NCBI GenBank assembly: GCA_003173855.1
Contig: PPGI01000010.1
Coordinates: 62,304-126,303 of the forward strand
Reading direction: 5' to 3'
DNA: 64,000 nt
Origin: Candidatus Zambryskiibacteriota bacterium
GTDB lineage: Bacteria > Patescibacteriota > Minisyncoccia > Phycocordibacterales > DATDWN01
Position numbers and translations under genes: made by a program. Each line of letters opens with the position of its first letter. The stretch's first letter is position 1. A model generated the notes under the pieces. The model was not told where the DNA came from. It searched no databases and worked only from the letters and a program-made list of their open reading frames with translations. Of the stretch, positions 2,168-61,149 are shown one piece after another.

Positions 2168-2172
2168 AAAAT

Positions 2173-2916
2173 ATGAACACAATATATATACTTTGGTTAA
2201 GACAACTTAAAAGATATTTTAGATCAAAATCTAGAATTTTTGCCTCACTTGCTCAACCATTACTTTTTTTATTTGCTTTTGGTTATGGTTTTAGTTCAAT
2301 TTTCGCACGTGCTGGTGGGGGAAATTATATTAATTTTCTTGCTCCTGGAATTATTTCTATGTCGGTTATGTTTACTGCAGTTTTTTCTGGTATCGAAATA
2401 ATTTGGGACAAGCAATTCGGATTTCTAAAAGAAACGCTTGTGGCACCAGTTTCTCGATTTAACATTATGTTAGGGAGAACCATTGGAGGTTCAACCGTTG
2501 CTTTTATTCAAGGTCTAATTGTCCTTCTAATCACACTTCTTGTTGGATTCAGGCCATCATTATCGCTTTTATTTTTTGCACTAGTATTTATGTTTTTATT
2601 GGCATTATTTTTTACTGCACTTGGTACTGCTATTGCCTCAAAACTAGATGATATGCAGGGATTTCCACTCATCATGAATTTTCTTGTTATGCCACTTTTT
2701 TTTCTTTCGGGAGCTCTTTTTCCAGTTGCAGGTTTGCCAAAAATTTTCAGTTACATTGTTAAATTAAATCCTTTAACTTATGCAGTTGATGGAATTCGTG
2801 GAACTATGAATGGCATGCATGCATTTTCACTAACATTAGATTTTTTTGTTGTAGTAATTGTCGCAGTTGTTTGTATTTGGATTGGTTCATTACTATTCCG
2901 CAGCATCGAAGCCTAG
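2173..2916 (+). CDS. ABC-2 family transporter permease
   Basis: About six predicted TM helices. Immediately downstream of the ABC ATPase in the same operon. Confidence 0.75.
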   Translation: MNTIYILWLRQLKRYFRSKSRIFASLAQPLLFLFAFGYGFSSIFARAGGGNYINFLAPGIISMSVMFTAVFSGIEIIWDKQFGFLKETLVAPVSRFNIMLGRTIGGSTVAFIQGLIVLLITLLVGFRPSLSLLFFALVFMFLLALFFTALGTAIASKLDDMQGFPLIMNFLVMPLFFLSGALFPVAGLPKIFSYIVKLNPLTYAVDGIRGTMNGMHAFSLTLDFFVVVIVAVVCIWIGSLLFRSIEA

Positions 2917-2924
2917 TAAGAAAC

Positions 2925-2952
2925 CGCCAAAGGACGGGCGGTTCCTTGGCGG
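2925..2952. terminator. Bidirectional terminator hairpin between convergent genes
   Basis: CCGCC-A-AAGGA / TCCTT-GGCGG stem. Abuts the stop codons of the + permease and the - lipoprotein gene. Confidence 0.45.
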
Positions 2953-3399
2953 CTATTTAAGCAAGATAAGTCTCAGATACTCGGCTTCTACCTCGCTTGC
3001 TGTCATGATGACAAAATCTTCTGTTTTGTAGACTTTGCCACTCTCAAGAAAACAGTTTGCCAGCTTCACCTTGAGTGCAGAATTTCCTCGAATCTTTTGA
3101 AGGATTTTTGGTAAATCCTCACGCAAGAGAACATACGGTTCTCCGTGGAAACTGACTTCCCAAACATCACCAGCTTCTTTCTTCTCTTCCACGATTGGAA
3201 GAAAGTTTATTGAGCCAGTTGTCAGCTTGAAAAAATTCTTTGCAACTTCTTTGCACATTTTAGATATTTCGAATGAAGTGATAACCACTCGATCCTTGAA
3301 ATGTCCGTCGATCCTTACCTCAAGGAACTCTTCGGAGCAGGCTGTCATTGGGCAGAAAATTATTACTAGGAAAACAAGCGATCTTAAGAGCTTTTTCAT
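2953..3399 (-). CDS. Hypothetical lipoprotein
   Basis: MKKLLRSLVFLVIIFCPMTAC signal with a lipobox-like Cys. The ORF-track start at 3462 is probably an upstream extension. Confidence 0.45.
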   Translation of the reverse strand: MKKLLRSLVFLVIIFCPMTACSEEFLEVRIDGHFKDRVVITSFEISKMCKEVAKNFFKLTTGSINFLPIVEEKKEAGDVWEVSFHGEPYVLLREDLPKILQKIRGNSALKVKLANCFLESGKVYKTEDFVIMTASEVEAEYLRLILLK

Positions 3400-3484
3400 C
3401 GGTACACCTCTGAATCGAATGTTTCCACAAAATTCAATATCTGTAAACAGAAAACCCACCATCGAGATGGGTTCTCTGGTGGGT

Positions 3485-4606
3485 CTAGTAGTTCGTCTGG
3501 CACATCTTCTCCAGACGTTCGACGCGTTTGTTGTCTATCTCCATTCCAGCGATATCCAATTGCCGTTTTTCGTGCGGCACAAAATCTTTTTTCAAGATTT
3601 TTGCCCAATGACATTCTCCTTTGTAAATCGGGAGTATGGCCACGATATCTGCTTCCCACTGGCTTCTAAAAATATACTCTAAGTAATTCTGGCTAAGACC
3701 GGTCACAGCGTAATCTTTCTTGTAATCACGCCTAAAGATGGTATGACCAAACTCGTGACCCAAAAGAACGGCTAAATCCTCAGGGTCTTCCAGAATTTCG
3801 CGCAGGATTTGGATGCTGAGTCTGATTTCGAATCCGTTCTTACGCGAAATATTTTCAGCTACACCCACTTCTTTTATCACCTTGATTCTAACTCTACGGA
3901 GCTGGGGTTCCTGCCCTGGAAAAATACAGTACAAAACTTTGTATGCGAATTTCCTCCAAGTTCTTATGTTGGACTCTTTTTTTGGAAGAGCTTTGGGTAA
4001 TGGACAGGAATTGAGAAGTCTTTTTGGAGAAGTTGAATCAAAGATGTTATCAATATTGTTCAACCGAAGAAAGAGAGAAGAAGTAACTTGATCTGCTTCT
4101 TCTTTGGGAAGATTCTTCATTTCTTCGACCCATTCAGGAATCATCCTGTCTAGAAGACTAGAAACTGCATAAGCTCTTGGAGAAACAAGAAGGCTAAAAA
4201 TATCTGCCTCAAGTTCCTCCTTCCTTTTCTCTGTCCAATCAACAGCTTGATTTCCGTTCTGCTGAGAACTTTTGTGATCAAGCAGCCTATGGGCCATTTT
4301 GTGAGCCAGTAATGCTGCATACTCATACTGATCGTTTACGCACCGAATCAGCCGAGTCGTGATGGTTATTTTTGAATCACCAACATCATTTTCAGCAATG
4401 CTGTCACTCTCCAAGATTTGAATCTGAATTTTGCGTACGAATTCGAGCCGATTTGGGAAAAGGATTTCAAGTACATTACGGGAGTAATTTTCCCAAGTTT
4501 CTTTCGAAATTACTACTCGTGTGGGTAGTGGTGGAAGAGTCTCGGCCTCCAATTGAATATTGAAAAGAAAAATCAGTGTTAAAAACGCGAGTGCTTTATT
4601 TCTCAT
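3485..4606 (-). CDS. Secreted zinc metallopeptidase-like protein (HExxH)
   Basis: N-terminal signal peptide. HEFGH zinc-binding motif plus a degenerate second HKMAH. Two similar halves suggest an internal duplication. Confidence 0.5.
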   Translation of the reverse strand: MRNKALAFLTLIFLFNIQLEAETLPPLPTRVVISKETWENYSRNVLEILFPNRLEFVRKIQIQILESDSIAENDVGDSKITITTRLIRCVNDQYEYAALLAHKMAHRLLDHKSSQQNGNQAVDWTEKRKEELEADIFSLLVSPRAYAVSSLLDRMIPEWVEEMKNLPKEEADQVTSSLFLRLNNIDNIFDSTSPKRLLNSCPLPKALPKKESNIRTWRKFAYKVLYCIFPGQEPQLRRVRIKVIKEVGVAENISRKNGFEIRLSIQILREILEDPEDLAVLLGHEFGHTIFRRDYKKDYAVTGLSQNYLEYIFRSQWEADIVAILPIYKGECHWAKILKKDFVPHEKRQLDIAGMEIDNKRVERLEKMCQTNY

Positions 4607-26073: not shown

Positions 26074-26102
26074 TTGACATAGTTTAAGTAGTATGTTAAT
26101 CT
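26074..26102 (+). promoter_or_regulatory. Promoter TGCTTGACA-N17-TAATCTTA (copy 1)
   Basis: Consensus -35, 17-bp spacer, TAATCT -10. Extended identity with copy 2 (AAATnTGCTTGAC...TAATCTTA). Confidence 0.5.
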
Positions 26103-26161
26103 TATTTCCAGAAACATGGGGCAATTTCGCCTCAGAGTTCTCAAAAGGTAGGGCAAAAGTC

Positions 26162-26794
26162 ATGGCCAAGGAAATGCTGACTCTCGACCAGGTCACCGAA
26201 AACGTCGGAGGCCTCATCAAGACCATGAAGTCCGTCAAGGGCTTCCGGATCGGCGAGCCGATCACAGGCTTCGTCAAGAAGATGGCCGATGCCATCGAGG
26301 CCGGCAAGCAGGCCGACGCCATCGATGTCGGTGAGGAGCTCGTCTCCGTGGGTCGCTCGATCCTCGGCAAGTTCATCAGGAACTCAGTCGTGGATCAGAA
26401 GAGCGAGGCGGACGAGATGCTCCTCCGCCAGGCACACTTCAACAAGATCCTGTCGCGGGTCGTCGCCGAGGGTTACGACGAAGACATCGTCGCTCGTCTC
26501 GAGAAGCTTCGCAAGGAACTCGAGGAGGCGGTGAACGTCGAGCGCAACGGAACCTTCGAAGTTCGCATCGGCGCCTACAACGCCATGTCTCAGGCAGCGG
26601 AAGATGCTGACAAGGAACAGGAGAAGCGTGACAGAGTTCGTCGTGTTCAGAGGCAAGAAGCCGCTCGCGCTGCGGCGTCGAACGGCAAGAAGGACGCTCT
26701 TCCGCAGGTTCCGACGAACAAGGGCACCGAACAGCGCGCCACCCTGCTCGCCGCTCGCAAGCAGCAAGCCGACGCCCTGAAGGCACTCCTCTAA
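26162..26794 (+). CDS. Hypothetical alpha-helical Ala/Glu/Lys/Arg-rich protein (211 aa) with foreign high-GC codon usage
   Basis: ATG 26162 after AAGGTAGGG. GC3-biased codons (AAG, GTC, GCC, CGC) unlike the host. Terminator downstream. Confidence 0.5.
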   Translation: MAKEMLTLDQVTENVGGLIKTMKSVKGFRIGEPITGFVKKMADAIEAGKQADAIDVGEELVSVGRSILGKFIRNSVVDQKSEADEMLLRQAHFNKILSRVVAEGYDEDIVARLEKLRKELEEAVNVERNGTFEVRIGAYNAMSQAAEDADKEQEKRDRVRRVQRQEAARAAASNGKKDALPQVPTNKGTEQRATLLAARKQQADALKALL

Positions 26795-27245: not shown

Positions 27246-27400
27246 TTTATTATTTTAATTTTTAATTACCAATTAACTAAGATTTTCAGATTTGGATGCA
27301 GTTCTAGGCGGACAAGAAAAATGCGAGGAGCCTTACAACTGTAAGGTGACGAAGATTTTTTGAAGTCCAACAACGAAATGCGCCAAATGTGAAAATCGAG

Positions 27401-27982
27401 CTAGAATAAACTTTGTGTTTTAACTTCAGGTACTGGCTCCCAATGCTTAGTTTCCAATTTTATTTCTTTAATAAATGGTCCATCTTTAAACATTAGTTTT
27501 TTATTTTTCAGTGCATATTCGTAAACATCACGGGTTATACGGACATCATCAATACAGTATTTTTTAATCTCTTCAACACGTCCTGTCCGCCACCAGACGA
27601 TTGCATCAAAACCATGACCGCTTTTATTTATTCCAAATGTTCCTTCTGCTATTTTATCTAGACTCATTCTCCGACCATACTGTGATTTTATTTCTTTTAG
27701 GACATCGAGAGACCTGATAGATTTTAGATCGCCTTTGCCAGCACGTCTATAATATTTATTTAAAAGTGGAATATCAAAATGATCCCCAGTAAATGTAATT
27801 AATACATCAGCTTTTTCAAAATATGGCCACATTTTGTCGAATTCTTCTTCAGTAAAACATTTGAATTCATTAGTTTCGTAATCATAAATTCCGACAACAG
27901 AAATATCCAAATCAGCTGGATTGTTTGATCCCACATCCTGAAAAATATTTTTTGTTTCTATATCAAAAACTAACTTTCTCAT
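27401..27982 (-). CDS. DEDD-type 3'-5' exonuclease (RNase H-like, PolB-exonuclease-like stand-alone)
   Basis: Exo I FDIET, Exo II FTGDHFDIPLL, Exo III YCIDDV. Confidence 0.65.
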   Translation of the reverse strand: MRKLVFDIETKNIFQDVGSNNPADLDISVVGIYDYETNEFKCFTEEEFDKMWPYFEKADVLITFTGDHFDIPLLNKYYRRAGKGDLKSIRSLDVLKEIKSQYGRRMSLDKIAEGTFGINKSGHGFDAIVWWRTGRVEEIKKYCIDDVRITRDVYEYALKNKKLMFKDGPFIKEIKLETKHWEPVPEVKTQSLF

Positions 27983-28896: not shown

Positions 28897-29262
28897 ATGA
28901 TTTCACAGTCTGACAGACGCGAGATGCTGGCTGCGATTGGGAGGATTCTGTGGGCATGCAGAGTGAAAAGGTGTCTCACAAGTAAAAACATAGGCTATAG
29001 AGCTGGAGTGCCTCGAGAAATTGTTGAGATGATCGAACGAGGGGAAGTGGCGGTCAAAAGCCAGATTGAAAGGGTGGTTGCTGCTTATCATTTTCACGAT
29101 GAAAGAGTGGAAGTGATCGCCAACTATTTGGCTGAAGTTTTTCCTTTCGGTGATCAAGTCGTTCAGATTGAAGTTCCTGTAACGAGAGATCCTGCGCCAA
29201 GGATTAGAAACAGGGCGCCAAAACAGGCAATACGACCATCTCATGGATGGTCCGGTCGGTAA
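28897..29262 (+). CDS. XRE-family HTH transcriptional regulator (paralog 1)
   Basis: YRAGVPREIVEMIERGE helix-turn-helix. Elevated GC. Confidence 0.55.
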   Translation: MISQSDRREMLAAIGRILWACRVKRCLTSKNIGYRAGVPREIVEMIERGEVAVKSQIERVVAAYHFHDERVEVIANYLAEVFPFGDQVVQIEVPVTRDPAPRIRNRAPKQAIRPSHGWSGR

Positions 29263-29266
29263 AGAT

Positions 29267-29303
29267 AGAGCACCAGTTTCGGCTGGTGCTCTTTGATTTT
29301 TAC
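29267..29303 (+). terminator. Rho-independent terminator (AGAGCACCAG tttcgg CTGGTGCTCT TTGATTTTTAC)
   Basis: Perfect 10-bp stem plus U-tract. Confidence 0.55.
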
Positions 29304-29368
29304 TCCAAAATTTGCAATAATTGATGATGGACTCTGTTTGCGAATGAACGCAAATAGGGAAATCGGAG

Positions 29369-29713
29369 GTGGCGATGCATATTCGCAATTCACCTGCAGA
29401 GATTCTTGGCAAGCTCATCCGCATAAATCGTGTGCTAACGATGAGTATGGGCAGCAAGGAAGAGCTTGCCGCAAAAGCGAATGTACCCGTCCAGGTGATT
29501 ACCTGGTTGGAGAAAGGAGAAGGAGAAAAACCTGACAGATCATTTGCCGAAAGAGTTCTTGATACTTTCAAGTTGACTGACAGGCCTCGCAGGTATCTTC
29601 AAGGACTGTTAAACACAGTCTTTGAACCCTCCACCATTCCGGTTGTCAAAGCCCCATTGGCTGCTTGGCAACCTCCAATTCGATGGAGGAGAGACACTCA
29701 ATTCCATAGATAA
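29369..29713 (+). CDS. XRE-family HTH transcriptional regulator (paralog 2)
   Basis: LAAKANVPVQVITWLEKGE HTH. Alignable with paralog 1. SD GGAGGTGG. Confidence 0.55.
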   Translation: MAMHIRNSPAEILGKLIRINRVLTMSMGSKEELAAKANVPVQVITWLEKGEGEKPDRSFAERVLDTFKLTDRPRRYLQGLLNTVFEPSTIPVVKAPLAAWQPPIRWRRDTQFHR

Positions 29714-48798: not shown

Positions 48799-50163
48799 TT
48801 AACGTGTGCCCCAGCGGCTGTCACGGATTTTTAAAATGGCGTACGGCAATTGCCATGCAAGAATCAAACTATAGAATGCTGTGGAAACTGAACCAGAAAG
48901 CCAGCGATTGTCTCCGGTGTATCGGTAATAGTAAAGACCGTAGATTAATGTCATTAAGAGTAAGCCGCTGAAATAATAAAGAGGAACAATTCCGCTATTA
49001 ACTGGGTGCCAAATTAAGGTTCGAATGAGAACAAATGGAGCAAGAAGTGGCAAGATAAATCCAAGATAAAACGAAAGACTCATTAGTAAATTTTTTCTCC
49101 ACATGAAAAAACATGCCATAAAACTTTCTCTGAACCATGATTTTTTCCAGCGAAGCTGTTGTTTCATATAGACTTTGAAATTGTCTGGAACAAAAGTGTG
49201 AGCGATTGAATCAGGAGCAAAAACAGTGTCAAATCCATGTTTCAGCACCCGATTGGTAAGACTTCGGTCATCACCATATGTACATTTGACCCCGAGAAAT
49301 TTTTGGTTTGTCCATTCATCAAGCATTGGTAAAATTACTGATCTTCTGTAAGCAGCAAGACATCCAGAGCAGCAAGTTACTGAACCAAAAAGAGCTTCAG
49401 CAGATTTGTAAGCTTTAAAAGCTACGTAATAACGGACTGATTGCATTCGAGTCAAAAAATTTGTTTCGGCATTTGCTACAAGTGCTTGGCCAGCGACTGC
49501 ACCGACGTTCGGCAGAGAAAAATATTTGACCATCGTTTTAAGAGCTTCCGGTTCAATAAAACTATCTGAATCGACAAACAAAATAATTTCTTTATCAGAA
49601 ATTCTGGTACATTCCGCCATCCCATCTCTTTTCCCGCGATTTATTTTCCAATCAACAACGATTACGTTCACGCCTTCAAGTGCTGCTAGGCGCTTTGCTT
49701 CATTCATTTCCTCGAGAGTGTTGTCAGTTGAACCGTCATTAATGGCGATAATGTCGAATTTATCTTTTGGGTAATTTGCTCTTGTCATTCGCATTATAGT
49801 TTCTCTTATGTGCTCACCTTCGTTTTTTGACGGCACAGCAAAGGAAACTGTCGGTTCGTAGTTCGGATCAAAAGAAGTTTCAGTGGGTGAATAAAAATAT
49901 GACAGAGCAAAACGAGAAATAACATAAGAGGCTACCATTAAGCTATAGCCAAAAAATATTATCTGGCCTTGCATCCATTGGATAGACAAAATTTTTATTA
50001 TCATTACTGAAAAAATCAAAACGTAGAAAACCACTGCAGCAAATGCTCTTGTTTTTGCTTTTCTATCAATTCGCGTATTTGCGAGGGCAATATTATTATT
50101 TGCAATTGTGTAACTCATTTTTTTATCGGCCAATTCCTTTGTAAGAGACCTGAGAATCTTCAA
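48799..50163 (-). CDS. Processive family-2 glycosyltransferase (PgaC/IcaA/cellulose-synthase-like)
   Basis: INDGSTDNT and VDSDSF DxD motifs, QQLRWKKSW (QxxRW). Multiple TM helices flank the catalytic domain. Confidence 0.75.
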   Translation of the reverse strand: MKILRSLTKELADKKMSYTIANNNIALANTRIDRKAKTRAFAAVVFYVLIFSVMIIKILSIQWMQGQIIFFGYSLMVASYVISRFALSYFYSPTETSFDPNYEPTVSFAVPSKNEGEHIRETIMRMTRANYPKDKFDIIAINDGSTDNTLEEMNEAKRLAALEGVNVIVVDWKINRGKRDGMAECTRISDKEIILFVDSDSFIEPEALKTMVKYFSLPNVGAVAGQALVANAETNFLTRMQSVRYYVAFKAYKSAEALFGSVTCCSGCLAAYRRSVILPMLDEWTNQKFLGVKCTYGDDRSLTNRVLKHGFDTVFAPDSIAHTFVPDNFKVYMKQQLRWKKSWFRESFMACFFMWRKNLLMSLSFYLGFILPLLAPFVLIRTLIWHPVNSGIVPLYYFSGLLLMTLIYGLYYYRYTGDNRWLSGSVSTAFYSLILAWQLPYAILKIRDSRWGTR

Positions 50164-51601
50164 AGATTTTTTTGTTTAAGCAATTTCGACCATCAATGAC
50201 TACTTGAATTCCATATTCACTAAGAAACTTTGGATTTAAAGTTAAAAATTCTCTATGAGCTGTTGCGATAATAATTGCCACAGCTCCAGTTAAGCTTTCG
50301 TCTAAGTTATTTGAGACAATTTCTTTCTTGACATATGGGTCGTACATATCAACATCAAAACCGTTTTGCCTCAATTCTTTATAAATTTCAAAAGATGGGC
50401 TTTCTCGAACATCAGAAATATCAGGCTTGTAAGATGCTCCAAGAACAACCACTTTTCCTTTCTCAATACCTCGTTTTTTTAATTCACGCTTTAGAAGTTT
50501 TATCGTATAACTCGGCATGTAGTTATTGATTTCTCGAGCTTGCATCAAAAATTTGTGTTCAAAACCATTTTTCTTTGCGTGCTCGATTAAGTAATACGGA
50601 TCAACAGGGATGCAGTGGCCGCCCACACCGCAACCTGGATAGTGAGCAAGAAAACTAAATGGTTTTGTCGATGCTCCACGAATTACGTTTACAATATCTA
50701 TACCTAAAACTTCAAATGACATTGCCAATTCATTTACAAAAGCAATGTTGATATCACGAAATGAATTTTCAACAATTTTGACTGCTTCAGCTTCTTTAAT
50801 GGAAGCCATCGGAGTTACTTTTCCTTTGCCTAAGATGCTTCGGTAAAACACTAAAGTTTTTCTAAGGCCTCTCTCATTTAAACTGCCTACAACACGGTTA
50901 ATATTTTCTAATGTCCAAGTGCTGTCGCCAGGATTAATTCGTTCTGGACAATGGGATAAATCAAAATCAATTCCTGCTTTTAATCCTGAACTTTTTTCTA
51001 AAATTGGAAGAACAATTGATTCACAAACACCTGGATTAACTGTTGATTCAATTATTACGAGATCTCCCGGTTTCAATTCTTTTGCAACACTTTTTGATGC
51101 TTCTATTAAAGGAACGAAGTCAGGTTTTGAATTCTCATCGATTGGGGTAGGGACGCAAACAATAATTATTTCTGATTCTCTTAAAAAAATAGGATTAGAA
51201 TTAACAAACAATTTGTTCTTTTTAAGAGAGTATCCAATTTTTTCGTCAACGAAAGGAGAGATTTGCCTTCGAATTAACTCTACTTTTTCTTCGTCAGTGT
51301 CTATTCCGATAACAGAATATCCATTTTCTTTTGCTAAAAGCGCTAAGGGCAAGCCAACATATCCTAAGCCGACAATAGCTACATTCTTATTTTTTACACC
51401 CTCTCTATTTCTTTGCTCCTTATCTTCTAAATTTAAATTTTTTTCGTAAGTCTCATGAATATTAAAATCTTTTATCTCAATCCCTTCGTTCTTTGTTGTT
51501 ACAGTATTCATTTTATTTTTTGTTAAATATTTATTAAAATTTCTCTCAGTATAAAGAAAAAAGATAAAGAATTTATGAAGCATTTGTAAGATTTTCTTCA
51601 T
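50123..51601 (-). CDS. UDP-sugar 6-dehydrogenase family (UDP-GlcNAc/ManNAc or UDP-glucose dehydrogenase)
   Basis: NAD-binding VAIVGLGYVGLPLA and catalytic GGHCIPVDP. The true start may be an internal codon, since the N-terminal ~70 aa are atypical. Confidence 0.7.
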   Translation of the reverse strand: MKKILQMLHKFFIFFLYTERNFNKYLTKNKMNTVTTKNEGIEIKDFNIHETYEKNLNLEDKEQRNREGVKNKNVAIVGLGYVGLPLALLAKENGYSVIGIDTDEEKVELIRRQISPFVDEKIGYSLKKNKLFVNSNPIFLRESEIIIVCVPTPIDENSKPDFVPLIEASKSVAKELKPGDLVIIESTVNPGVCESIVLPILEKSSGLKAGIDFDLSHCPERINPGDSTWTLENINRVVGSLNERGLRKTLVFYRSILGKGKVTPMASIKEAEAVKIVENSFRDINIAFVNELAMSFEVLGIDIVNVIRGASTKPFSFLAHYPGCGVGGHCIPVDPYYLIEHAKKNGFEHKFLMQAREINNYMPSYTIKLLKRELKKRGIEKGKVVVLGASYKPDISDVRESPSFEIYKELRQNGFDVDMYDPYVKKEIVSNNLDESLTGAVAIIIATAHREFLTLNPKFLSEYGIQVVIDGRNCLNKKIFEDSQVSYKGIGR

Positions 51602-53508: not shown

Positions 53509-54062
53509 TGCCCAAGGGAGTTCTATTTTTTAAAAATGCCTTAGTCGGAAAAAAAGTTGGAGCAATTGCTCGAAGTTCTAAATATGTTATTTCTCAAGTT
53601 TCGAAAAATATAGATGATTTAAAATTGGAAACTATTGTTGAATACGGCCCTGGAGATGGAGTTTTAACAATTGAATTGCTAAAGAAACTTCGAACTAATG
53701 GGAAAATGCTTGTCGTTGAGAACGACGAAAATTTTATTAAAAGTTTAAAAAAAATAAATGATTCTCGTTTAACTATTATTAAAGGAAAAATGGAAGATGT
53801 TTCAAAAAATTTAGCAACCTATGGCTTCGGAAATTGTGATCTAATTATTTCCAGCGTACCATTTTCATTAATACCAAAAAAGGATAGGGAAGAGATGGTA
53901 AAAAAAAGTTGCGACTCAATTACTCAAGATGGAAAATTTATAATTTTTCATCAATATTCGTTTTTAATGGAAAGAATGTTAGAAAAATATTTTAGAAATG
54001 TGATGACTGATTTTGAACCAAGAAATATTTTGCCGTGTTTTATAATGACTGCTTGGAAATAG
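53508..54062 (+). CDS. Class I SAM-dependent methyltransferase (small, rRNA/phospholipid MTase-like)
   Basis: Motif I VEYGPGDGVLT. ATG 53508 overlaps the upstream stop. The ORF track lists a longer 53388 start. Confidence 0.55.
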   Translation: MPKGVLFFKNALVGKKVGAIARSSKYVISQVSKNIDDLKLETIVEYGPGDGVLTIELLKKLRTNGKMLVVENDENFIKSLKKINDSRLTIIKGKMEDVSKNLATYGFGNCDLIISSVPFSLIPKKDREEMVKKSCDSITQDGKFIIFHQYSFLMERMLEKYFRNVMTDFEPRNILPCFIMTAWK

Positions 54063-54159
54063 ATTTTCCTTTAAATCTCTTATACACCATAACTTTTTCG
54101 TCACTGGAATATTTTTCTGCTGAAAATTTCCTCGCACTCGCCTCTACACGGGCTCCGTG

Positions 54160-54196
54160 ATGAAAAGAAAGCGCTGGTGCCTGTAGCACCAGCGCT
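54160..54196 (-). terminator. Terminator for the 54270 gene (AGCGCTGGTGC ctgta GCACCAGCGCT)
   Basis: Perfect 11-bp stem with TTCTTTTCAT on the minus strand. Confidence 0.5.
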
Positions 54197-54269
54197 CGTG
54201 TGAGTTTGTCGAACATCTGTCGACTAAACCCACGAAAGAACATCCCAAAAAGAACTTCTAGCGAACTAA

Positions 54270-55499
54270 CTACCACTTCTTGTCTCCGCCCTTGTCTCCG
54301 CCGTGATCTCCACCTTTGTCACCACCGTGATCGGGTGGTGGAGCGGGAGTTGGGTTTGGAGGCTGGACCTGTGGTGTGGCCTTTGCCTCATTGTTATTGT
54401 TGTTCGAATTCGAATTCTTTGACACAGCGTCTGAACTCGAATCTGCTCCGGCGGCTGCGCCGGCTGAGACTTTGCCGACATTTCCGCCATCTGCTTTTGA
54501 TTCGCCTCCAGTTGCCGTAACGTTTCCGTTTTTGGCACTTGAGTTTGAATTTGACTCTCCACCATTGCCGACACCGTTTGCGGTAACAGCTCCATTGGTG
54601 GCGTTGGCTTGTCCGCCGTTTGCCTGTGAGCTCGAACTTCCGTTAGCGCTCACATTACCGTTACTCGCACTCGCCTGTCCGCCGTTTGCTTGTCCACCAT
54701 TTGCTGTGTTGTTTACAACAACTGATGGTCCGCTCGATCCAGATCCGGTAGAACCCGAACTCGAGCTTGAAGTCGATGACGAACTTGAACTGGTTGCAGA
54801 CGCGCTGCCACCAGCTCCGCCTTGACCGCCTGTTGCATTTGCCGACGCTCCGGTCTGCGTTTGATTTACGTTGACAACTGGCGCCGGAATTTTCCCGATC
54901 GCTGTGGTCATCATTGACCCGATTTTCTGGGTCTGACCGGCGAGCGTTTTTCGAACAGCATCGACAGATGCTGTGTTGGCATTCACCGCATCGTAAATCT
55001 TGCCAGTGTTGTGAGCAGTGACAAGATTTGCGTATGCAGAGATTCCACCTTCGACTGTAAGAGCAAACAACCACTTGTTCGCTGTGCTTGTTGAGCCAGC
55101 GATTCGCTCTTGAGCACGTCGGCTTCGATCAGCGATTTCGTTACCACGCTTCAACTCTTCAACCACTGCAGTTGAATCGAAATTCACTTGCGGTGGTGGC
55201 GTTGCTCTCTGCAGAAGCAGAGCGAGTGCATCTCCAGTAAACGCTGGTTGCACTGGTGCCTGCGGATTTTCCACGTGGTTCTCGATCACGATCACAGGTG
55301 CGGCCGGGTGTTCCGCGGCAATGACTTCTGCTTTGGCACGCGCTCGACCACTTGTGACCGGTTTCTTTGCTTGTGTGCAGTCAACCTGAACAGTGATCTT
55401 TGATCCGTCCGGACAGGTGACTGTTGTCGGAGTGAGCTGAGCTTCCGCAAGATTTGAACTTGCGAATGCGAGCACGATAACGAGCCAGAGTTTCCTCAT
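54270..55499 (-). CDS. Secreted protein with a long Gly/Ser/Asn/Ala low-complexity region and a C-terminal HGGDKGGD repeat
   Basis: Signal peptide MRKLWLVIVLAFASSNLAEA. GC near 50%. Confidence 0.5.
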   Translation of the reverse strand: MRKLWLVIVLAFASSNLAEAQLTPTTVTCPDGSKITVQVDCTQAKKPVTSGRARAKAEVIAAEHPAAPVIVIENHVENPQAPVQPAFTGDALALLLQRATPPPQVNFDSTAVVEELKRGNEIADRSRRAQERIAGSTSTANKWLFALTVEGGISAYANLVTAHNTGKIYDAVNANTASVDAVRKTLAGQTQKIGSMMTTAIGKIPAPVVNVNQTQTGASANATGGQGGAGGSASATSSSSSSTSSSSSGSTGSGSSGPSVVVNNTANGGQANGGQASASNGNVSANGSSSSQANGGQANATNGAVTANGVGNGGESNSNSSAKNGNVTATGGESKADGGNVGKVSAGAAAGADSSSDAVSKNSNSNNNNNEAKATPQVQPPNPTPAPPPDHGGDKGGDHGGDKGGDKKW

Positions 55500-55510
55500 A
55501 GTTTCCTCTG

Positions 55511-56836
55511 CTATTGGACTAGCCCTAGAAGGGCAGCTGTTTGTCTTTGCTCCTTCTCAATTTTGTGGCGGATAAATCCACTCAAAACTGGAAGAGTTCC
55601 TTCGACTACTCCACTTACACCCCCGGTTGAGATTCCCAGTGCAACTGGAACACCGTAGGTTAAAGTTCCAAAGAGTAGTTTAGAGCCGAACGATTGTTGA
55701 CTCGGGTAAGTTGCGAGGAGTTTTCCATAACGCTTTTTTGATACGCTAGGAATTTTTTCCTCTTTGACTTTGGTTGCGTGATCTCGAAGGTCATTACTTC
55801 CGATTTCTGCAAAACGTTCTCCTCCGTGGTCAAAGACCACAGAAGAAGATTCTTGCACCGGAAGATCACGTGTCAGAACAACCTTGATTGCGTAGTTTCC
55901 ATCAGCGGTGTTCTCGATGATGGTAACTGTTTCTTTCCGATGCCAATTTCCATTCTCGTCTTTTGAAACGAGAAGTAGCGCCGGATGAGGTCCTTCTTTT
56001 ACGTCACGAAATTCTTTTCCACTAATGCGAATTTCGTAAACGCCCTTCTTTATAATTTTCAGTGAAGTTTTAGTTTCCGAAGCTATCACTCCACTACCAT
56101 CTTCGGATTTTGGATCCGGAGTCCTTTCCACTTCAGCACGAACATCATTCGTTCTGAAGGAGACCGAAACTGATCTTCCAAACGTTCCTGAGACGTACTC
56201 GGGAGCATTTGGTGTTTCCTCTACTGTCGTACCAGATTCAGGTGCCTGGGAAGTAACTTGGACAGTAGACTTCTCTGGCGAAACCTTTCGGGGTTTGCTT
56301 TGCACTTTACGTGCTACCTGAATTTTTTCTGGGTGCGGCAGATTGAACAAATCGCATGGAATCACAAGAGTCCAACCCACTTCGATGTGGTTTGGATTCC
56401 GGATCTCTACGATCCGTGATCCCACTTGCCTTGAAATAATATGGTAAGCGGAGAGCTCACCATAATAATCAAGAGCAATTTGTCCAAGCGTATCACCTTT
56501 GACCACTTCTCGTTCCAAGTTGCTGCAAGCATCTGGAGTAAGAGGTGTATCGGTGCTCTTCTTTGATGCTCCGGCTCTGCGGGCTTCAAGTTCTGCAAGA
56601 GCGGGGGCATCAATCTTTCTCTGTTGGGCTTTTCCTAATTCAAGTCCACCACCAAAGCCCAGCGCAAGAATTATTGCAGCAAGAACTGTTGCTGCAAGCG
56701 CTGAACCCAAAATGGTCTGCTTGATTCGTTCCCAACGGAGCCTTTCTCGGATCCTTGCCCATCTGTTTTCTACTACGATTACAGAGGGATTCTTACGGAC
56801 ACTCATTTGTCCACTCCTTCCCGAAAGTTTCGGCAA
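55511..56836 (-). CDS. LysM-domain membrane protein
   Basis: Cytoplasmic N-terminus, one TM helix, LysM (VKGDTLGQIALDYYG...GWTLVIP), and a C-terminal Gly-rich hydrophobic segment. Confidence 0.55.
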   Translation of the reverse strand: MPKLSGRSGQMSVRKNPSVIVVENRWARIRERLRWERIKQTILGSALAATVLAAIILALGFGGGLELGKAQQRKIDAPALAELEARRAGASKKSTDTPLTPDACSNLEREVVKGDTLGQIALDYYGELSAYHIISRQVGSRIVEIRNPNHIEVGWTLVIPCDLFNLPHPEKIQVARKVQSKPRKVSPEKSTVQVTSQAPESGTTVEETPNAPEYVSGTFGRSVSVSFRTNDVRAEVERTPDPKSEDGSGVIASETKTSLKIIKKGVYEIRISGKEFRDVKEGPHPALLLVSKDENGNWHRKETVTIIENTADGNYAIKVVLTRDLPVQESSSVVFDHGGERFAEIGSNDLRDHATKVKEEKIPSVSKKRYGKLLATYPSQQSFGSKLLFGTLTYGVPVALGISTGGVSGVVEGTLPVLSGFIRHKIEKEQRQTAALLGLVQ

Positions 56837-56873
56837 GAGCCTCTATCATCAACTTGTTTCCACTTAATAAAAC

Positions 56874-56892
56874 TGTCCCGGTTCCGGCAACA
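56874..56892. repeat. 19-bp direct repeat TGTCCCGGTTCCGGCAACA (copy 1)
   Basis: Exact 19/19 match with copy 2, 90 bp away, in the promoter region of the LysM gene. Confidence 0.6.
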
Positions 56893-56963
56893 GCTCATCT
56901 CATGGTCATTTTTGAAGATTTTGGTTTCCCGCACTTTCGAGATTCTTTTCTTTGTTTGTGTGA

Positions 56964-56982
56964 TGTCCCGGTTCCGGCAACA
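56964..56982. repeat. 19-bp direct repeat TGTCCCGGTTCCGGCAACA (copy 2)
   Basis: Exact 19/19 match with copy 1. Confidence 0.6.
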
Positions 56983-57066
56983 AAACACTATTTAAAGAAA
57001 GGAATGTACGAAAGAGTTTCCGCTTTCAAACGTTGATGTCGTGATTGTGGTTGTTAGGTCGCTTTC

Positions 57067-57777
57067 TTAGGCTGTCGGCGAGATTGCTCGAGCTGTTCTC
57101 TGCGATCTCGGTTTTCCAACCGTTCCGAGAACGATCTGCTCAGTCATATTCAAACGTGCTGACCAAGCAACTTCCACGTCTTCCTCGAGATTTTGGTTTT
57201 CGCTTGCTTTAAACAGTACTCGAGGATCACCATTTTTGATGAAGAAATCTGCGTTAGCGAACTTTCCTTTACCTGGATCTGCATTTAGAACAAACCTACA
57301 GTACACAGGTTTTTGCCCCTGAGCATAGTAGAAAGCTTTGATTTGCTCAAGTTCGGGATTTGTTATCCGAACTTTTTTTGTGTTCATGTAGATCAGTACT
57401 CCGAGAATAGTAGTAAGTATCAGAGTAATGATACTGCTGAACACAACTACATAATTTCTCGTTGACTGACTTTCTTCCCTGACCAGTTTTTCGATTCTGG
57501 TCAATCGATCGTTAGTTTTTTTCTCGAGAGCGACTTGTGAAGTCGAGAGCTGTTTTGCTCTAGTCTCACTTTTTTTGTCGATTTCATGAACCTCACTCGT
57601 CAGATCTTTTTTGACGGTGTTCAGATTTCGACGAGCTTCGGCCCGAACCGAATTGAGTTGCCGTACTGTGACGGCTTCGTCAGCTTCCGGTCTTCGAGCG
57701 TGCTGTGCCTCGAGCCTCGTATTTATTGCGAGGCAGGCAAGAATCGTGATGGTCGCGATCGTCAGTCTGCTTCGCAT
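57067..57777 (-). CDS. Hypothetical coiled-coil protein with a signal peptide and an internal TM helix
   Basis: SD GGAGAG before ATG. Coiled-coil region, then VVVFSSIITLILTTILGVLIY TM. GC near 50%. Confidence 0.5.
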   Translation of the reverse strand: MRSRLTIATITILACLAINTRLEAQHARRPEADEAVTVRQLNSVRAEARRNLNTVKKDLTSEVHEIDKKSETRAKQLSTSQVALEKKTNDRLTRIEKLVREESQSTRNYVVVFSSIITLILTTILGVLIYMNTKKVRITNPELEQIKAFYYAQGQKPVYCRFVLNADPGKGKFANADFFIKNGDPRVLFKASENQNLEEDVEVAWSARLNMTEQIVLGTVGKPRSQRTARAISPTA

Positions 57778-57946
57778 TTTCTCTCCAATTCAAAATGACG
57801 GCTAAAGGCTAGGCCTTGCCGTGTTTGTCAAAGAAACCCTAAAAATTATCACATGAGTCAAATGAATGAATCATGAATAATTTTAATCTATATTTATTAT
57901 TTTTTTAGGTTTGTCCACTCCAAAAAAACCAAAATTTATGGCTTAA

Positions 57947-58918
57947 TTATTGGGTTTGATGGTCGTAAACTAGCCTTGAAATATCAGAAATATTTTTAGA
58001 AAGAATATTAAAATCCTGGCCACTTGTCATAACACAAAGAATGTAAGGGTTTTTATCATAAACAATTCCGCAATCATGCAGTTCTTTTTTTATTAGATTT
58101 CCGTTTGTATCAAATACTTGTCTTTCTCCAAATTTGTCAGCAATATCAATTGTTTCCGGTATTCCAGACCTTAGGCCTTGAGGGAAATCTTTGTAAGTCA
58201 TTAACTGCAAGATTTTTTCGGAATTTTCACGATTTATATAAGTACTATTGTAAAGAACACGTAAAAAAAGAGCATAAGTTCGTGTCGACATAAAATCTAA
58301 GGAGTCATTTGGAATATTGATATTCAAATCTTTGTACAATTCAGATAGTGAGTTAGCATTTATATTTTCGTGAAGAACAGTTAATGCGTTATTATCTGAA
58401 TAATCCAAAACGTAAGTAATCAGATCATCGAGAGTGTAAGATTTTCCAGGCACGATTTCTTTTTCAGGTTTAAAATATTCGGCTTGGTTATTATCAAATG
58501 AACCATCATAAGTAAATCTTTGTTTAAGAATTTCTGGATGAGATTCCGAATATTTTAGCGTATCAACGACTGTTGGAACTTTAAGCATACTTGCAGGAGA
58601 AAATGATTTGTTCATATCATATCCTGCCCAACCACTGCCTGAAAGACTTAGATAATAGATTGAAATGTTATTAGACGGATTTTTTGAAACATAATCTTTA
58701 AGTAGGGTGGAAAGATTTGTGTCTTCGTTATAAGAACGAGGTATATCAATGTTGCAGAGGAGAACAGGGTTAATGTATTTGTAACCACTTTCACGCAAAA
58801 CTTTAGGACGGATAATAAGAGGAGGTTTAATGATGTAACCAATACTTCCTCCGATTAAAAAAAAGACGCCATACAGTGCCCAAGTCCAAAAAGCTTTTCT
58901 TTTTATGAAAGTTATCAT
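57947..58918 (-). CDS. Class A beta-lactamase-like serine hydrolase (membrane anchored)
   Basis: SPASMLK (SxxK), YSDNNA (SDN), and KFG in place of KTG. N-terminal TM. Confidence 0.55.
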   Translation of the reverse strand: MITFIKRKAFWTWALYGVFFLIGGSIGYIIKPPLIIRPKVLRESGYKYINPVLLCNIDIPRSYNEDTNLSTLLKDYVSKNPSNNISIYYLSLSGSGWAGYDMNKSFSPASMLKVPTVVDTLKYSESHPEILKQRFTYDGSFDNNQAEYFKPEKEIVPGKSYTLDDLITYVLDYSDNNALTVLHENINANSLSELYKDLNINIPNDSLDFMSTRTYALFLRVLYNSTYINRENSEKILQLMTYKDFPQGLRSGIPETIDIADKFGERQVFDTNGNLIKKELHDCGIVYDKNPYILCVMTSGQDFNILSKNISDISRLVYDHQTQ

Positions 58919-58959: not shown

Positions 58960-59550
58960 CTAACTTTCAATTAATTTTGTATAGACGACTATCCTGTGAT
59001 CATCAGTTTTTTCAGCAGGAATCCAATTTCCATCACAAGTAATTAAATTGAGATATCGATCCCCGTTTCGGTTAAAAAGTATTTCGAGCGGTACATCTTT
59101 ATAATAATAATTTTGAATATCAAAGACTTTGAATTTTAATTTTCTGCCATTTTTTGCTTGAACATAAACTATATCCCCTGGAACCAATTTTTTTAAATTA
59201 ATAAAAACTGCCGGTATTCCTAGGCCATTATCAACATGCCCATCAATAACTGCGCTGCCAAGTTCTCCTGGCACTGTGCCGTATTTGTACCATCCTGTGT
59301 CAGCAAATTTTTTTGGTGTAGACATATTGCCTTTAAATGTAATGCCGACTTCTTCAACTACTGCATTAACATTTATTTTCGGAATAATAATTTGAATAGG
59401 GTGAGATACAGAAAAAGAAACGCTCTGAGCTGTTTGGGCCACAGGCGTTTCTTCTTGTGGGGAATAATATGTTGAACGAATTACAGTTACTGTCCCGATA
59501 ATTATTCCGAGAATGGCTATACTTATTCCAATTACTTTTTTCTGCATCAA
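58960..59550 (-). CDS. Sortase (transpeptidase)
   Basis: N-terminal TM. Catalytic His in AVIDGHV and Cys in LITCDG. Confidence 0.75.
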   Translation of the reverse strand: MMQKKVIGISIAILGIIIGTVTVIRSTYYSPQEETPVAQTAQSVSFSVSHPIQIIIPKINVNAVVEEVGITFKGNMSTPKKFADTGWYKYGTVPGELGSAVIDGHVDNGLGIPAVFINLKKLVPGDIVYVQAKNGRKLKFKVFDIQNYYYKDVPLEILFNRNGDRYLNLITCDGNWIPAEKTDDHRIVVYTKLIES

Positions 59551-59551
59551 C

Positions 59552-59809
59552 CTATTCTAACCCATAGTCTTTGGATTTAATAAGAAGTGTTAATCCAATT
59601 GCAACTAGAATAATTGCAAGAACAATCATTGCCGCGTTGCTTACGAGCATTCCTCCAAGACCTGTTGTTGGCACACCTGGTGTTGTTATTGGAGTTGGTG
59701 ATACAGGTGTTGGCGTTGTTGATGAGCTAACTTGAGCATTAACAATGCTTGCCCCAAGAATGCTTAACAAAGCAAAACCTCTGGTGAAAATTTTTTTAAT
59801 TTTGTCCAT
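59552..59809 (-). CDS. Miniature sortase-substrate-like protein (signal peptide + PT-rich stretch + VPTTG + TM + KSK tail)
   Basis: 85 aa. A C-terminal cell-wall sorting signal occupies most of the protein. Confidence 0.5.
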   Translation of the reverse strand: MDKIKKIFTRGFALLSILGASIVNAQVSSSTTPTPVSPTPITTPGVPTTGLGGMLVSNAAMIVLAIILVAIGLTLLIKSKDYGLE

Positions 59810-59877: not shown

Positions 59878-61149
59878 TTATGGTATGGCTACTATGTGCA
59901 GTGTTACATTTACAACATCTCTGCTCGTTTGTCCTGTAAATGTGTAAGTTTTGTTTCCAGTGACATAAGGAACAATTATTGAACCAGTCCCAAAGTTTCC
60001 TTCTTTGTCAGTCGTTAGTGTCATTAGGGTGTTTCCATTAGAGGACATGATTACTTGTTCGTTTGAACCGAAATGATCTCCAGCAAAGTCATCGGTGTCT
60101 CCTTCAACTACTGTCGTTTGCGCTGCTACAACATGTGCACCAGAATTGTTGTTTACTCCGTCACCCTCAAATCTTGGATGATGATTAAGTTCACTAATCA
60201 GGTTTTGAATTTGAAGTCTCAATGCGTTCAGCTGGTTTTGTAATCCCTGAATTAAGTCTAGAAGGAATTGTTTATCGATGTCGCTAAGAGGAGTTGTTGT
60301 GCCCGTGACAGGAGGAGTTGTCGTACCAGTAACCGGTGGTGTTGTAGTTCCTGTAACTGGAGGTGTAGTTGTTCCTGTCCCGCCATTTCCTGGTGTTGTC
60401 GTTGCTGTTGTCGTTGCGTTTTGAATATTGAAGACATGAAGCATGATCATTTTGTCTGTGTCTGATGCCAGATTAAAATTCATTACTCCTGATGAAGTTG
60501 TGCCAATTAGATCTTGATCATCATTATTTGGTGCAATTTGATCTGGTGTAAACAAGACTGCGCCGAAGTGACTATTTGGAGATGGATTCGTTTCGTTAAC
60601 TGTCACTTGTGAACTAGTCGATGTTAGATTTAATTCGTAACTTGATGCATCAAGGCATGTTGATGAAGCTATCGTGCCATTTAGATCGATATCAACTCCA
60701 ATGGAAGATTCACAAATTTTGTTTGGAATGTACGTTCCATTATTTTTTAGAGTCTGTGTTGTTGTACCATTTGTGTTTTGGACTTGGAAATCAAAATTTG
60801 TTCGCGGTCCAGTAATGCTTCCCGACGGTGCAACATCACCAGGAATAGCGCTTGTTGGACAATTTAATTCTGAATTGAGGAATTTTCTGTAATAAGTCTG
60901 GCCAGCACCAAGATTTAAGAAGTCATTCAGATTTGTAATATTTGAATTACAAAGATGCTTCATAATCATAATGCTGTAAGTTGTTGTTGCGACAGACCCT
61001 GTGGTTGTGCTTGTTTGTTCTGTTGTAGTTGCATTAGTTGTGGTAGCCGTTTGGGCAAACAAGAGAGCCCCAGGGGATAGAAGTGATACAACAAGAGTTG
61101 TTGCAATGGCTGCTCCCATAAGCTTATTTTTTAATTTTTTTTGAATCAT
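59878..61149 (-). CDS. Secreted Thr-rich surface protein with TTTPPVTG x3 repeats and a coiled-coil
   Basis: Signal peptide. Three exact 8-aa repeats, each containing PPVTG. Confidence 0.5.
   Translation of the reverse strand: MIQKKLKNKLMGAAIATTLVVSLLSPGALLFAQTATTTNATTTEQTSTTTGSVATTTYSIMIMKHLCNSNITNLNDFLNLGAGQTYYRKFLNSELNCPTSAIPGDVAPSGSITGPRTNFDFQVQNTNGTTTQTLKNNGTYIPNKICESSIGVDIDLNGTIASSTCLDASSYELNLTSTSSQVTVNETNPSPNSHFGAVLFTPDQIAPNNDDQDLIGTTSSGVMNFNLASDTDKMIMLHVFNIQNATTTATTTPGNGGTGTTTPPVTGTTTPPVTGTTTPPVTGTTTPLSDIDKQFLLDLIQGLQNQLNALRLQIQNLISELNHHPRFEGDGVNNNSGAHVVAAQTTVVEGDTDDFAGDHFGSNEQVIMSSNGNTLMTLTTDKEGNFGTGSIIVPYVTGNKTYTFTGQTSRDVVNVTLHIVAIP

Follow-up and report, generated by a model that had tools for sequence, protein, structure and literature searches.

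We describe here a structured non-coding element in the window, by which we mean the whole 64,000-nt stretch of contig PPGI01000010.1 of a Candidatus Zambryskiibacteriota bacterium that was analysed. The element lies between the first two of three co-oriented minus-strand genes, which we call g3, g2 and g1, and it ends at the start codon of g2, the gene of a membrane-anchored LysM protein. We think it fairly probable that the three genes form an envelope operon, ordered g3, leader RNA, g2 and g1, in which LysM expression is under the control of the leader, and to judge from sequence comparison this control is probably exerted on translation of the LysM gene. The Patescibacteria, or candidate phyla radiation (CPR), are mostly uncultivated bacteria with tiny genomes that depend on contact with a host cell, and to our knowledge almost nothing has been learned of how they regulate their envelope.

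The leader element of the LysM gene

The original prediction for this DNA, made from its letters alone, pointed to two exact copies of a 19-mer, 90 bp apart, and took them for a dedicated regulator binding site in the promoter region of the LysM gene, ahead of a GC-elevated island. The copies of TGTCCCGGTTCCGGCAACA are there, at 56874-56892 and 56964-56982 (90 nt apart), and they are the only two matches in the window even when up to 3 mismatches are allowed, with 0 expected by chance. Their placement had to be corrected, as they do not precede the island but lie inside it, between g3 and g2, 68-176 nt upstream of the LysM ATG. Comparison among genomes identifies the repeats as the stem-loop cores of predicted twin hairpins within a larger structured non-coding element, whose parts are as follows.

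56800..57031, minus strand: structured non-coding leader or intercistronic RNA, ~232 nt, ending at the LysM start codon
57009..57016, minus strand: 5′ pyrimidine block CUCUUUCG, helix 1
56949..56997, minus strand: hairpin domain 1, helices 3-5, local fold −11.2 kcal/mol, with the 19-mer copy 56964-56982
56931..56944, minus strand: middle block AAUCUCGAAAGUGC, pairing with the 5′ block (fold 1) or with the Shine-Dalgarno (SD) region (fold 2)
56856..56909, minus strand: hairpin domain 2, helices 6-7, local fold −17.8 kcal/mol, with the 19-mer copy 56874-56892
56814..56841, minus strand: terminal hairpin, in which UCUU/UCCUUU (anti-SD) pairs with the SD, −11.2 kcal/mol

The leader was found in six genomes, at the LysM start codon in all six loci, and it can be aligned among loci although the proteins on either side share only 25-35% identity. 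On average, two leaders are 57% identical in nucleotide sequence, compared with 36% for the adjacent 300 nt of g2 and 33% for those of g3. No reading frame is conserved in it among the loci. This bears on whether the spacer might encode a small protein, given that a 61-codon sense open reading frame (ORF; 56803-56988) is present in the window and covers both repeats, each of which would read CCRNRD. However, the longest stop-free frames vary among loci in both frame and length (16-77 codons), 1- and 2-nt indels occur along the alignment, and the substitutions keep base pairs rather than codons, so that we give a coding role next to no credence.

Folding four of the sequences together with RNAalifold gave a helix between the 5′ block and the CGARRG of the middle block, which encloses hairpin domain 1, followed by hairpin domain 2 and by the terminal hairpin, in which UCCUUU pairs with the Shine-Dalgarno GGAAGGA (in the window GGAAGGAG, at 56814-56821). 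In this alignment 93.9% of the cells are paired, against 40-56% when the partners are slid. A covariance model built from the same four sequences (R1) scores 205.9 bits in the window, and it found two full-length matches that had not been used in building it, with 113.5 bits (E~1e-26) at locus L025 and 105.6 bits (E~6e-25) at L033, both directly 5′ of a LysM-family gene and 3′ of a g3-like gene. Across the six sequences, 21 of 53 pairs show compensatory changes; shuffled alignments average 7.4, none of 500 reaches 21, and slid controls give 1-9. Helix 1 is 100% paired in the six sequences with 2 compensatory pairs, hairpin domain 2 has compensatory changes in 8 of its 13 pairs, and the terminal SD helix (helix 8) is conserved and 93% paired.

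Because the six-sequence alignment had been fitted to the model, we aligned the six close leaders with MAFFT alone and folded them anew. This fold again contains the two hairpin domains, and 20 of its 60 pairs are compensatory. Its middle block, however, has GC...CUUUCGGGAA in the ribosome-binding site as its partner instead of the 5′ block. Taken together, the two folds therefore give two mutually exclusive conserved pairings, both of which cover the SD. The 5′ block could itself pair with the SD region instead of the middle block; an 'on' state of this pseudo-SD/anti-SD type is possible, and we set it aside as indistinguishable from chance pairing of low-complexity tracts.

Scans with a block of the leader returned little beyond these loci. 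Among genome contigs there were 20 matches, of which L009, L024 and L025 are real, and all the others except L016 lack a covariance-model match; a single scan of metagenomes yielded only duplicates of L009 and L024 and one chance match (L029), and the viral contigs a single chance match (L031) with no covariance-model match. At L016 (4874-4960, minus strand), in a Patescibacteria metagenome-assembled genome (MAG), only the pre-start block AAAGTCCTTCG...CCTTTCGGGAAGGAACCATG is shared, and it stands before a 27-codon ORF with neither twin hairpins nor a LysM gene. It may be that the SD-proximal block is a translation-initiation module with a wider use in these bacteria.

Several known systems resemble the leader in part. 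Weinberg et al. (2017, PMC5737381) described lysM motifs as candidate cis-regulatory structured RNAs in potential 5′ untranslated regions of LysM-domain genes, one of which comes from the CPR phylum TM7/Saccharibacteria; no ligand or partner is known for these motifs, and binding of c-di-AMP was not observed (PMC5737381). Our leader shares with them its place directly 5′ of a LysM-domain gene, in all six loci. It is unlike them in its length of ~230 nt, its two near-identical hairpin units, the conserved g3 upstream and its occurrence mostly in Parcubacteria-type genomes. An Rfam cmscan at E≤10 of window positions 56700-57150 and of L025, L001, L009, L024 and L002 gave no match to lysM-TM7, lysM-Actino or lysM-Prevotella, models whose presence in the library we take from that of sibling motifs of PMC5737381 such as Ocean-VII. 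The c-di-AMP (ydaO) riboswitch matched neither at the gathering score nor at E≤10, and no other family matched in the window or the five other loci at E≤10, once a ROSE_3 thermometer match (13.6 bits against a gathering score of 43; E=3.4) had been dismissed as noise. The leader would thus appear, by sequence, to be a structured cis-regulatory leader of a cell-wall-binding protein gene that stands outside every described family.

In its conserved pyrimidine tract pairing with the SD near the AUG, and in its alternative conserved pairings, the leader also resembles SD-sequestering leaders such as translational riboswitch platforms and the ROSE and fourU thermometers. It differs from RNA thermometers in being much larger and in carrying two extra conserved hairpin domains, and an aptamer-like invariant core was not identified in it.

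Across loci, 10-53 nt separate the g3 stop codon from the first covariance-model position, and a sigma-70 scan found no promoter in the g3-g2 spacer; the leader is therefore most simply read as an intercistronic stretch of a g3-g2-g1 transcript. A reading of the 19-mer as an ECF or sigma-54 promoter was dropped by eye, with no matching -10/-12 element at the right distance. On this transcript the leader would act as RNA and in cis. By masking the ribosome-binding site or setting it free, it would determine how much LysM protein is made, and with it g1, which appears to be translationally coupled; the two mutually exclusive pairings of the middle block would fit such a switch.

The same intercistronic position, with little room for a promoter in the 10-53 nt after the g3 stop, would also suit a role in RNA processing or stability, in which the hairpins serve, for example, as RNase III sites or 5′ stabilisers that uncouple the amount of g3 mRNA from that of g2-g1, with no regulated translational switch. 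Two long stable hairpins (−11 and −18 kcal/mol) and an SD helix that lacks covariation are in keeping with this. Such a role does not, however, account for the within-genome identity of the hairpin loops and flanks, nor for the strict conservation of the SD and of two different partner tracts, and we consider it unlikely.

Twin hairpins and their possible partner

The two hairpins bear most directly on whether the repeats act as RNA or as DNA. Among the positions of the structure that depart from Watson-Crick pairing there are 41 G·U and 3 A·C, and within the two hairpins the counts are 27 and 0. This asymmetry argues for an RNA of the sense strand, since the opposite strand or duplex DNA would treat both mismatches alike. 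Both the compensatory changes and the strand specificity are what would be expected of a structured cis-regulatory RNA.

For these reasons the binding site first proposed, in which the 19-mers would be double-stranded DNA operators for a dedicated dimeric transcription factor at a LysM promoter, is not the best reading of the repeats. Each unit is an imperfect palindrome, the two copies are ~90 bp apart, and their identity within a genome would be expected if one protein reads both. Duplex DNA is blind to the G·U excess in the arms, however, and the half-sites covary between genomes with no consensus kept. Conservation spans ~230 nt and includes the SD-pairing helix. The spacing of the hairpin units ranges from 90 to 97 nt across loci, or 8.6-9.2 helical turns, and helical phase is thus lost. 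The module contains no gene for a DNA-binding protein, and the sigma-70 scan of the spacer was negative. Operators therefore seem to us quite unlikely, while binding of a regulator to the hairpins at the RNA level is possible.

The identity of the two units within each genome goes further than their structure. The exact repeat between them is 19 nt in the window and 21-42 nt in five other close loci. The loop falls within this repeat, as do flanking bases in most loci. From one locus to another the units have changed by compensating substitutions. Two divergent loci that the model does not detect behave alike, with CCUGAAAAGGG occurring twice, 92 nt apart, at L002 and CUCC-UUAU-GGGAG units ~127 nt apart at L034. 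Independent upkeep of two stems would not leave loops and flanks identical, and possible causes are homogenisation of the copies, a single co-evolving partner or cross-pairing of the units.

Two homologous structured units in series are also found in tandem-domain riboswitches and in leaders that dimeric RNA-binding proteins recognise, such as those of the BglG/LicT-RAT type. In tandem riboswitches such as those for glycine and NAD+-I, the two units hold a universal consensus across species, whereas the units of our leader are identical within a genome and divergent between genomes. This pattern is more readily explained by homogenisation, or by a macromolecular partner that co-evolves with the units, than by a fixed small ligand, and the divergence speaks mildly against a universal ligand pocket in the hairpins. 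We suggest that what recognises the hairpins is probably a trans-acting partner, itself probably dimeric, that co-evolves with them, rather than a universal small molecule, although such a partner is a candidate only.

It is tempting to speculate that this partner is g3 itself. Its coiled coil would sense a cue from the cell wall or the host interface, and a g3 dimer would bind or release the two identical hairpins through its cytoplasmic domains, opening or closing the LysM/g1 ribosome-binding site in a transmembrane signal-to-translation circuit made of a single protein and carried on a cassette that is exchanged laterally among CPR. If so, co-evolution of protein and hairpins would explain why the hairpins are identical within and different between genomes, and lateral exchange of the cassette among CPR lineages would explain its host-independent GC content. 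We regard this circuit as a long shot.

Several points weigh against a leader-controlled operon as we propose it. Its structure rests on six close and phylogenetically related sequences (seven with L002), and the alignment that gave 21 of 53 compensatory pairs was the one fitted to the model. The two consensus folds disagree on the closing helices, and purine and pyrimidine tracts make chance alternative pairings easy. The SD helix shows no double-sided changes, so covariation gives no proof of it. Co-transcription with g3, the 5′ end of the leader and any processing are all inferred from sequence. The cytoplasmic domain of g3 is modelled at a predicted local distance difference test (pLDDT) score below 50, which gives no usable model, and our proposal does not account for the GC anomaly of the module described below.

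The three proteins and their loci

The three co-oriented genes, with the features first described for them, were confirmed from their ORFs, with one reservation about g2. Their products also stand on record from an NCBI contig of 221,174 nt.

57067..57777, minus strand: g3, 236-residue type-I membrane protein (ORF and family alignment)
55511..56806, minus strand: g2, 431-residue membrane-anchored LysM protein, ATG at 56804-56806
54270..55499, minus strand: g1, 409-residue secreted protein (ORF, and homologs 3′ of LysM genes)
54169..54197, minus strand: intrinsic-terminator-like hairpin, 13 pairs, 8 of them G-C, then UCUUUUCAUC

g3 has a signal peptide, an extracytoplasmic coiled coil, a transmembrane (TM) segment (~108-131) and a cytoplasmic domain of ~100 residues with the motif NPxxEQLKxF...F.L...C.A...W; it belongs to no Pfam family. 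A single-sequence AlphaFold2 (AF2) model shows a confident helix at 34-132 and a low-confidence tail.

The N-terminal half of g2 consists of a TM segment, a LysM domain (~97-150) and a disordered linker, and its C-terminal half of a beta-domain (~250-370), a KK.Y..L...FP.KP motif and Gly-rich hydrophobic helices. The LysM assignment stands: Pfam LysM (PF01476) matches residues 101-150 with 23.1 bits (cutoff 20.9), a family profile matched LysM chains in the PDB down to E=1.2e-20, and the domain has the beta-alpha-alpha-beta fold of LysM. The description of g2 as single-pass is doubtful, because a second hydrophobic segment is present in the Gly-rich C-terminal helices (373-430). The beta-domain is modelled at a pLDDT of ~90-97 and has no convincing structural neighbour.

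g1 starts 11 nt after the g2 stop. Its signal peptide is followed by a Cys pair, a Pro-rich stretch and a helical core (...ANKW...). The low-complexity tail, rich in Gly, Ser, Asn and Ala, opens with GGQGG and ends in a His/Gly/Asp/Lys C-terminus (DHGGDKGGDHGGDKGGDKKW). The terminator-like hairpin, 73 nt 3′ of the g1 stop, closes the operon. Within the low-complexity region, positions 54574-54693 contain a 66-nt imperfect tandem duplication (72% identity) that encodes NGGQA-type repeats, and the disordered tail could vary in length by such duplication.

Apart from LysM, the module proteins matched no domain in Pfam, PHROGs or NCBIfam, nor in the PDB. The suggestion that they form a cell-envelope module is borne out by a LysM peptidoglycan-binding protein, two signal-peptide proteins and the neighbouring genes, which encode a sortase, a sortase substrate, a beta-lactamase-family protein and a polysaccharide deacetylase. 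On sequence, the role of the three proteins can be placed only as far as a predicted LysM-mediated attachment to peptidoglycan. The sortase gene (58960-59550; Pfam Sortase, 2e-22) adjoins that of an 85-residue protein (59552-59809), which ends in a sorting-signal-like VPTTG, a hydrophobic segment and KSK and is therefore probably a sortase substrate or pilin. Envelope functions mark the entire 52-64 kb region, with a T-rich surface protein in addition to the beta-lactamase-family protein and the deacetylase.

Homology searches with the three proteins, which had been proposed as a check, gave a divided answer. Word-indexed searches with g1, g2 and g3 found only the queries themselves, and all three are singletons at 90% identity. 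This ORFan status is uninformative, because RpoB, RpoC and the other housekeeping proteins tried from the window are singletons too. An exhaustive HMMER search, run on g2 only, returned ~20 distant homologs (20-36% identical), and those whose source carries an organism name come from 'Parcubacteria group bacterium' MAGs. The family shares an N-terminal TM segment or signal peptide, LysM, a variable linker, a conserved beta-domain of ~110 residues, the KK.Y..L...FP.KP motif and the Gly-rich hydrophobic C-terminus.

The gene order recurs as well, with a gene for 160-270 residues, a spacer, the LysM-family gene and an abutting gene for 280-470 residues, and the g3, LysM and g1 families stand together in this order at ~10 CPR loci. 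Homologs of g1 lie directly 3′ of the LysM gene at L001, L009, L032, L033, L004 and L003; they share the signal peptide, Cys pair, Pro-rich stretch, helical ANKW core and GGQGG-opened tail, and the His/Gly/Asp/Lys C-terminus is seen again at L032 and L004. Homologs of g3 lie directly 5′ of the leader at L001, L009, L024, L025 and L002 (family alignment) and also at L033 and L034, and share a signal peptide, coiled coil, TM segment and a cytoplasmic domain of ~80-100 residues starting (N/D)P..E.LK.(F/Y). L024 and L025 represent a variant, in which the LysM protein has a different, longer C-terminal half and the available downstream DNA shows no g1-like gene.

Composition and origin of the island

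Windowed recomputation confirmed the GC-elevated island of the original prediction.

54090..57840, no strand: GC-elevated island (composition profiles; z=5.0 against other 3.75-kb windows)

Its GC content is 48.1%, while the remaining 3.75-kb windows have a mean of 37.1% (standard deviation 2.2, maximum 44.5). In 1-kb windows, 54001-58000 reads 0.506, 0.490, 0.458 and 0.417, against 0.29-0.40 in most of the window, and in 200-nt windows the steps at ~54090 and ~57840 are abrupt, with immediate flanks at 0.26-0.30. GC is raised at every codon position. The codon-usage check agreed: GC at third codon positions (GC3) is 0.36-0.46 in the island genes and 0.20-0.31 in host genes, and at four-fold sites 0.375 compared with 0.223. 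Three non-coding stretches of the island have a GC of 0.43-0.46. Because GC3, four-fold sites and non-coding stretches are all raised, the excess is more than an amino-acid effect, and both base composition and codon usage are atypical, as would be expected of a mobile genomic island.

The corresponding values of four-fold-site GC at other loci are as follows.

Window: module 0.375, flank 0.223
L002: module 0.607, flank 0.216
L001: module 0.519, flank 0.302
L006: module 0.487, flank 0.382
L004: module 0.442, flank 0.368
L025: module 0.504, flank 0.628 (host GC-richer than module)

At its synonymous sites the module thus holds to an intermediate composition of its own, with a GC of ~0.4-0.6 in hosts that range from 0.22 to 0.63. 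Candidate causes are repeated in-place recombinational replacement, as at surface-polysaccharide loci, or selection on composition.

The position of the module is conserved between distant genomes. At L002 the genes next to it are orthologs of two from the window, those of the methyltransferase (56% identical) and the VTT-domain protein (58%), and their convergent arrangement is also the same; a 41% homolog of window 59878-61149 lies on its other side. Window 50123-51601 has a 52% homolog at a Zambryskibacteria locus (L006/L009), ~1.7 kb beyond g1. The module therefore occupies a syntenic neighbourhood in three divergent genomes.

These observations bear on whether the island was recently acquired from a GC-richer outside donor, a phage or a mobile element, with the repeats as remnants. 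The sharp GC steps, high GC3 and GC-rich non-coding parts would suit such an origin, as would the isolation of the three proteins, each a singleton at 90% identity that word-based searches leave as an ORFan, and the presence of a serine recombinase and tRNAs ~3-5 kb from the module at L001. However, RpoB of this genome is also a singleton, the organism-named homologs are CPR, and the L025 module is less GC-rich than its host. The window contains no tRNA and no flanking direct repeats, and no recombinase or integrase domain was found among the nine proteins scanned between 51.6 and 59.6 kb (the island and its immediate neighbours), so that a search of the flanks for integration scars came up empty. 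Scans of viral contigs with the LysM protein gave no protein relatives, the PHROG matches of g2 arise from its LysM region only, and no hallmark gene of a prophage or phage cassette was found in the module. A module-less 'empty' site was not found among the related loci, none of which is a close relative of this genome. With a syntenic site and with no tRNA, repeats, recombinase or viral relatives, recent insertion is unlikely, and we hold an outside donor to be very doubtful. The proposed horizontal acquisition is thus borne out only by half: the composition does look foreign, but the organism-named homologs are CPR and the site is syntenic at L002 and L006/L009. We take the module as native to Parcubacteria-type CPR, compositionally autonomous yet syntenic.

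Like an integrase-borne genomic island, the module has sharp compositional borders and atypical codon usage; unlike one, it has no integrase, tRNA target or direct repeats and sits at a syntenic site in distant relatives. It also resembles O-antigen and capsule cassettes, where atypical, fast-diverging surface genes lie between conserved flanks at a syntenic position. Such cassettes carry genes for sugar-synthesis enzymes and are as a rule richer in AT than the host, whereas the module consists of three structural envelope proteins with a GC above that of most hosts, and lateral replacement is a candidate only.

An integrative element does occur at L001, where 1837-3716 holds a large serine recombinase, an HTH_17 gene, hsdM and tRNAs (3498-3569 and 3644-3716), 3-5 kb upstream of the module. 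A link between the two is not evident, because the GC step is at the module and not at the tRNAs.

Other parts of the window also depart from its mean composition. A 233-residue ORF on the plus strand (26093-26794) has a GC of 0.588 and a GC3 of 0.75 in a 36% GC genome, a stronger outlier than the island; it has no Pfam family, forms a singleton cluster and lies between bacA and an RNase_H-like gene, and the GC-rich stretch reaches ~27200. The elevation is milder elsewhere: positions 28903-29571 (GC 0.465) carry ORFs on both strands that have no Pfam match, and an M48-peptidase gene (3485-4606) and its neighbour (2953-3462) have a GC of 0.40-0.41 and a GC3 of ~0.41. L002 has a second GC-rich islet at 2001-4000, and small GC-rich islets may be a general trait of these genomes. 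Just 3′ of the RNase_H-like gene (27401-27982), a non-coding element of ~100 nt (27290-27390, minus strand) is conserved at L028 (1800-1903, Parcubacteria GW2011_GWA2_40_14) with 78% identity over 104 nt (blastn). Near-invariant blocks ATTTGGCGCATTTCGTTGTTGGACTTCA and GTCCGCCTAGAACTGCATCCAAAT flank a hairpin whose stem is compensatory (CCTTACA/TGTAAGG against ACGTAC/GTACGT). The element is neither tRNA nor tmRNA, matches no Rfam family and may be another undescribed small RNA.

What emerges is a conserved three-gene envelope module in which two proteins and one domain have no known relatives. Its leader is a new structured RNA that would be a Parcubacteria-type counterpart to the orphan lysM motifs, and the pattern of its twin hairpins points to a macromolecular partner rather than a metabolite. 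The cassette keeps its own base composition at a syntenic site in hosts whose synonymous GC ranges from 22% to 63%, and simple models of amelioration do not predict that it should retain it.

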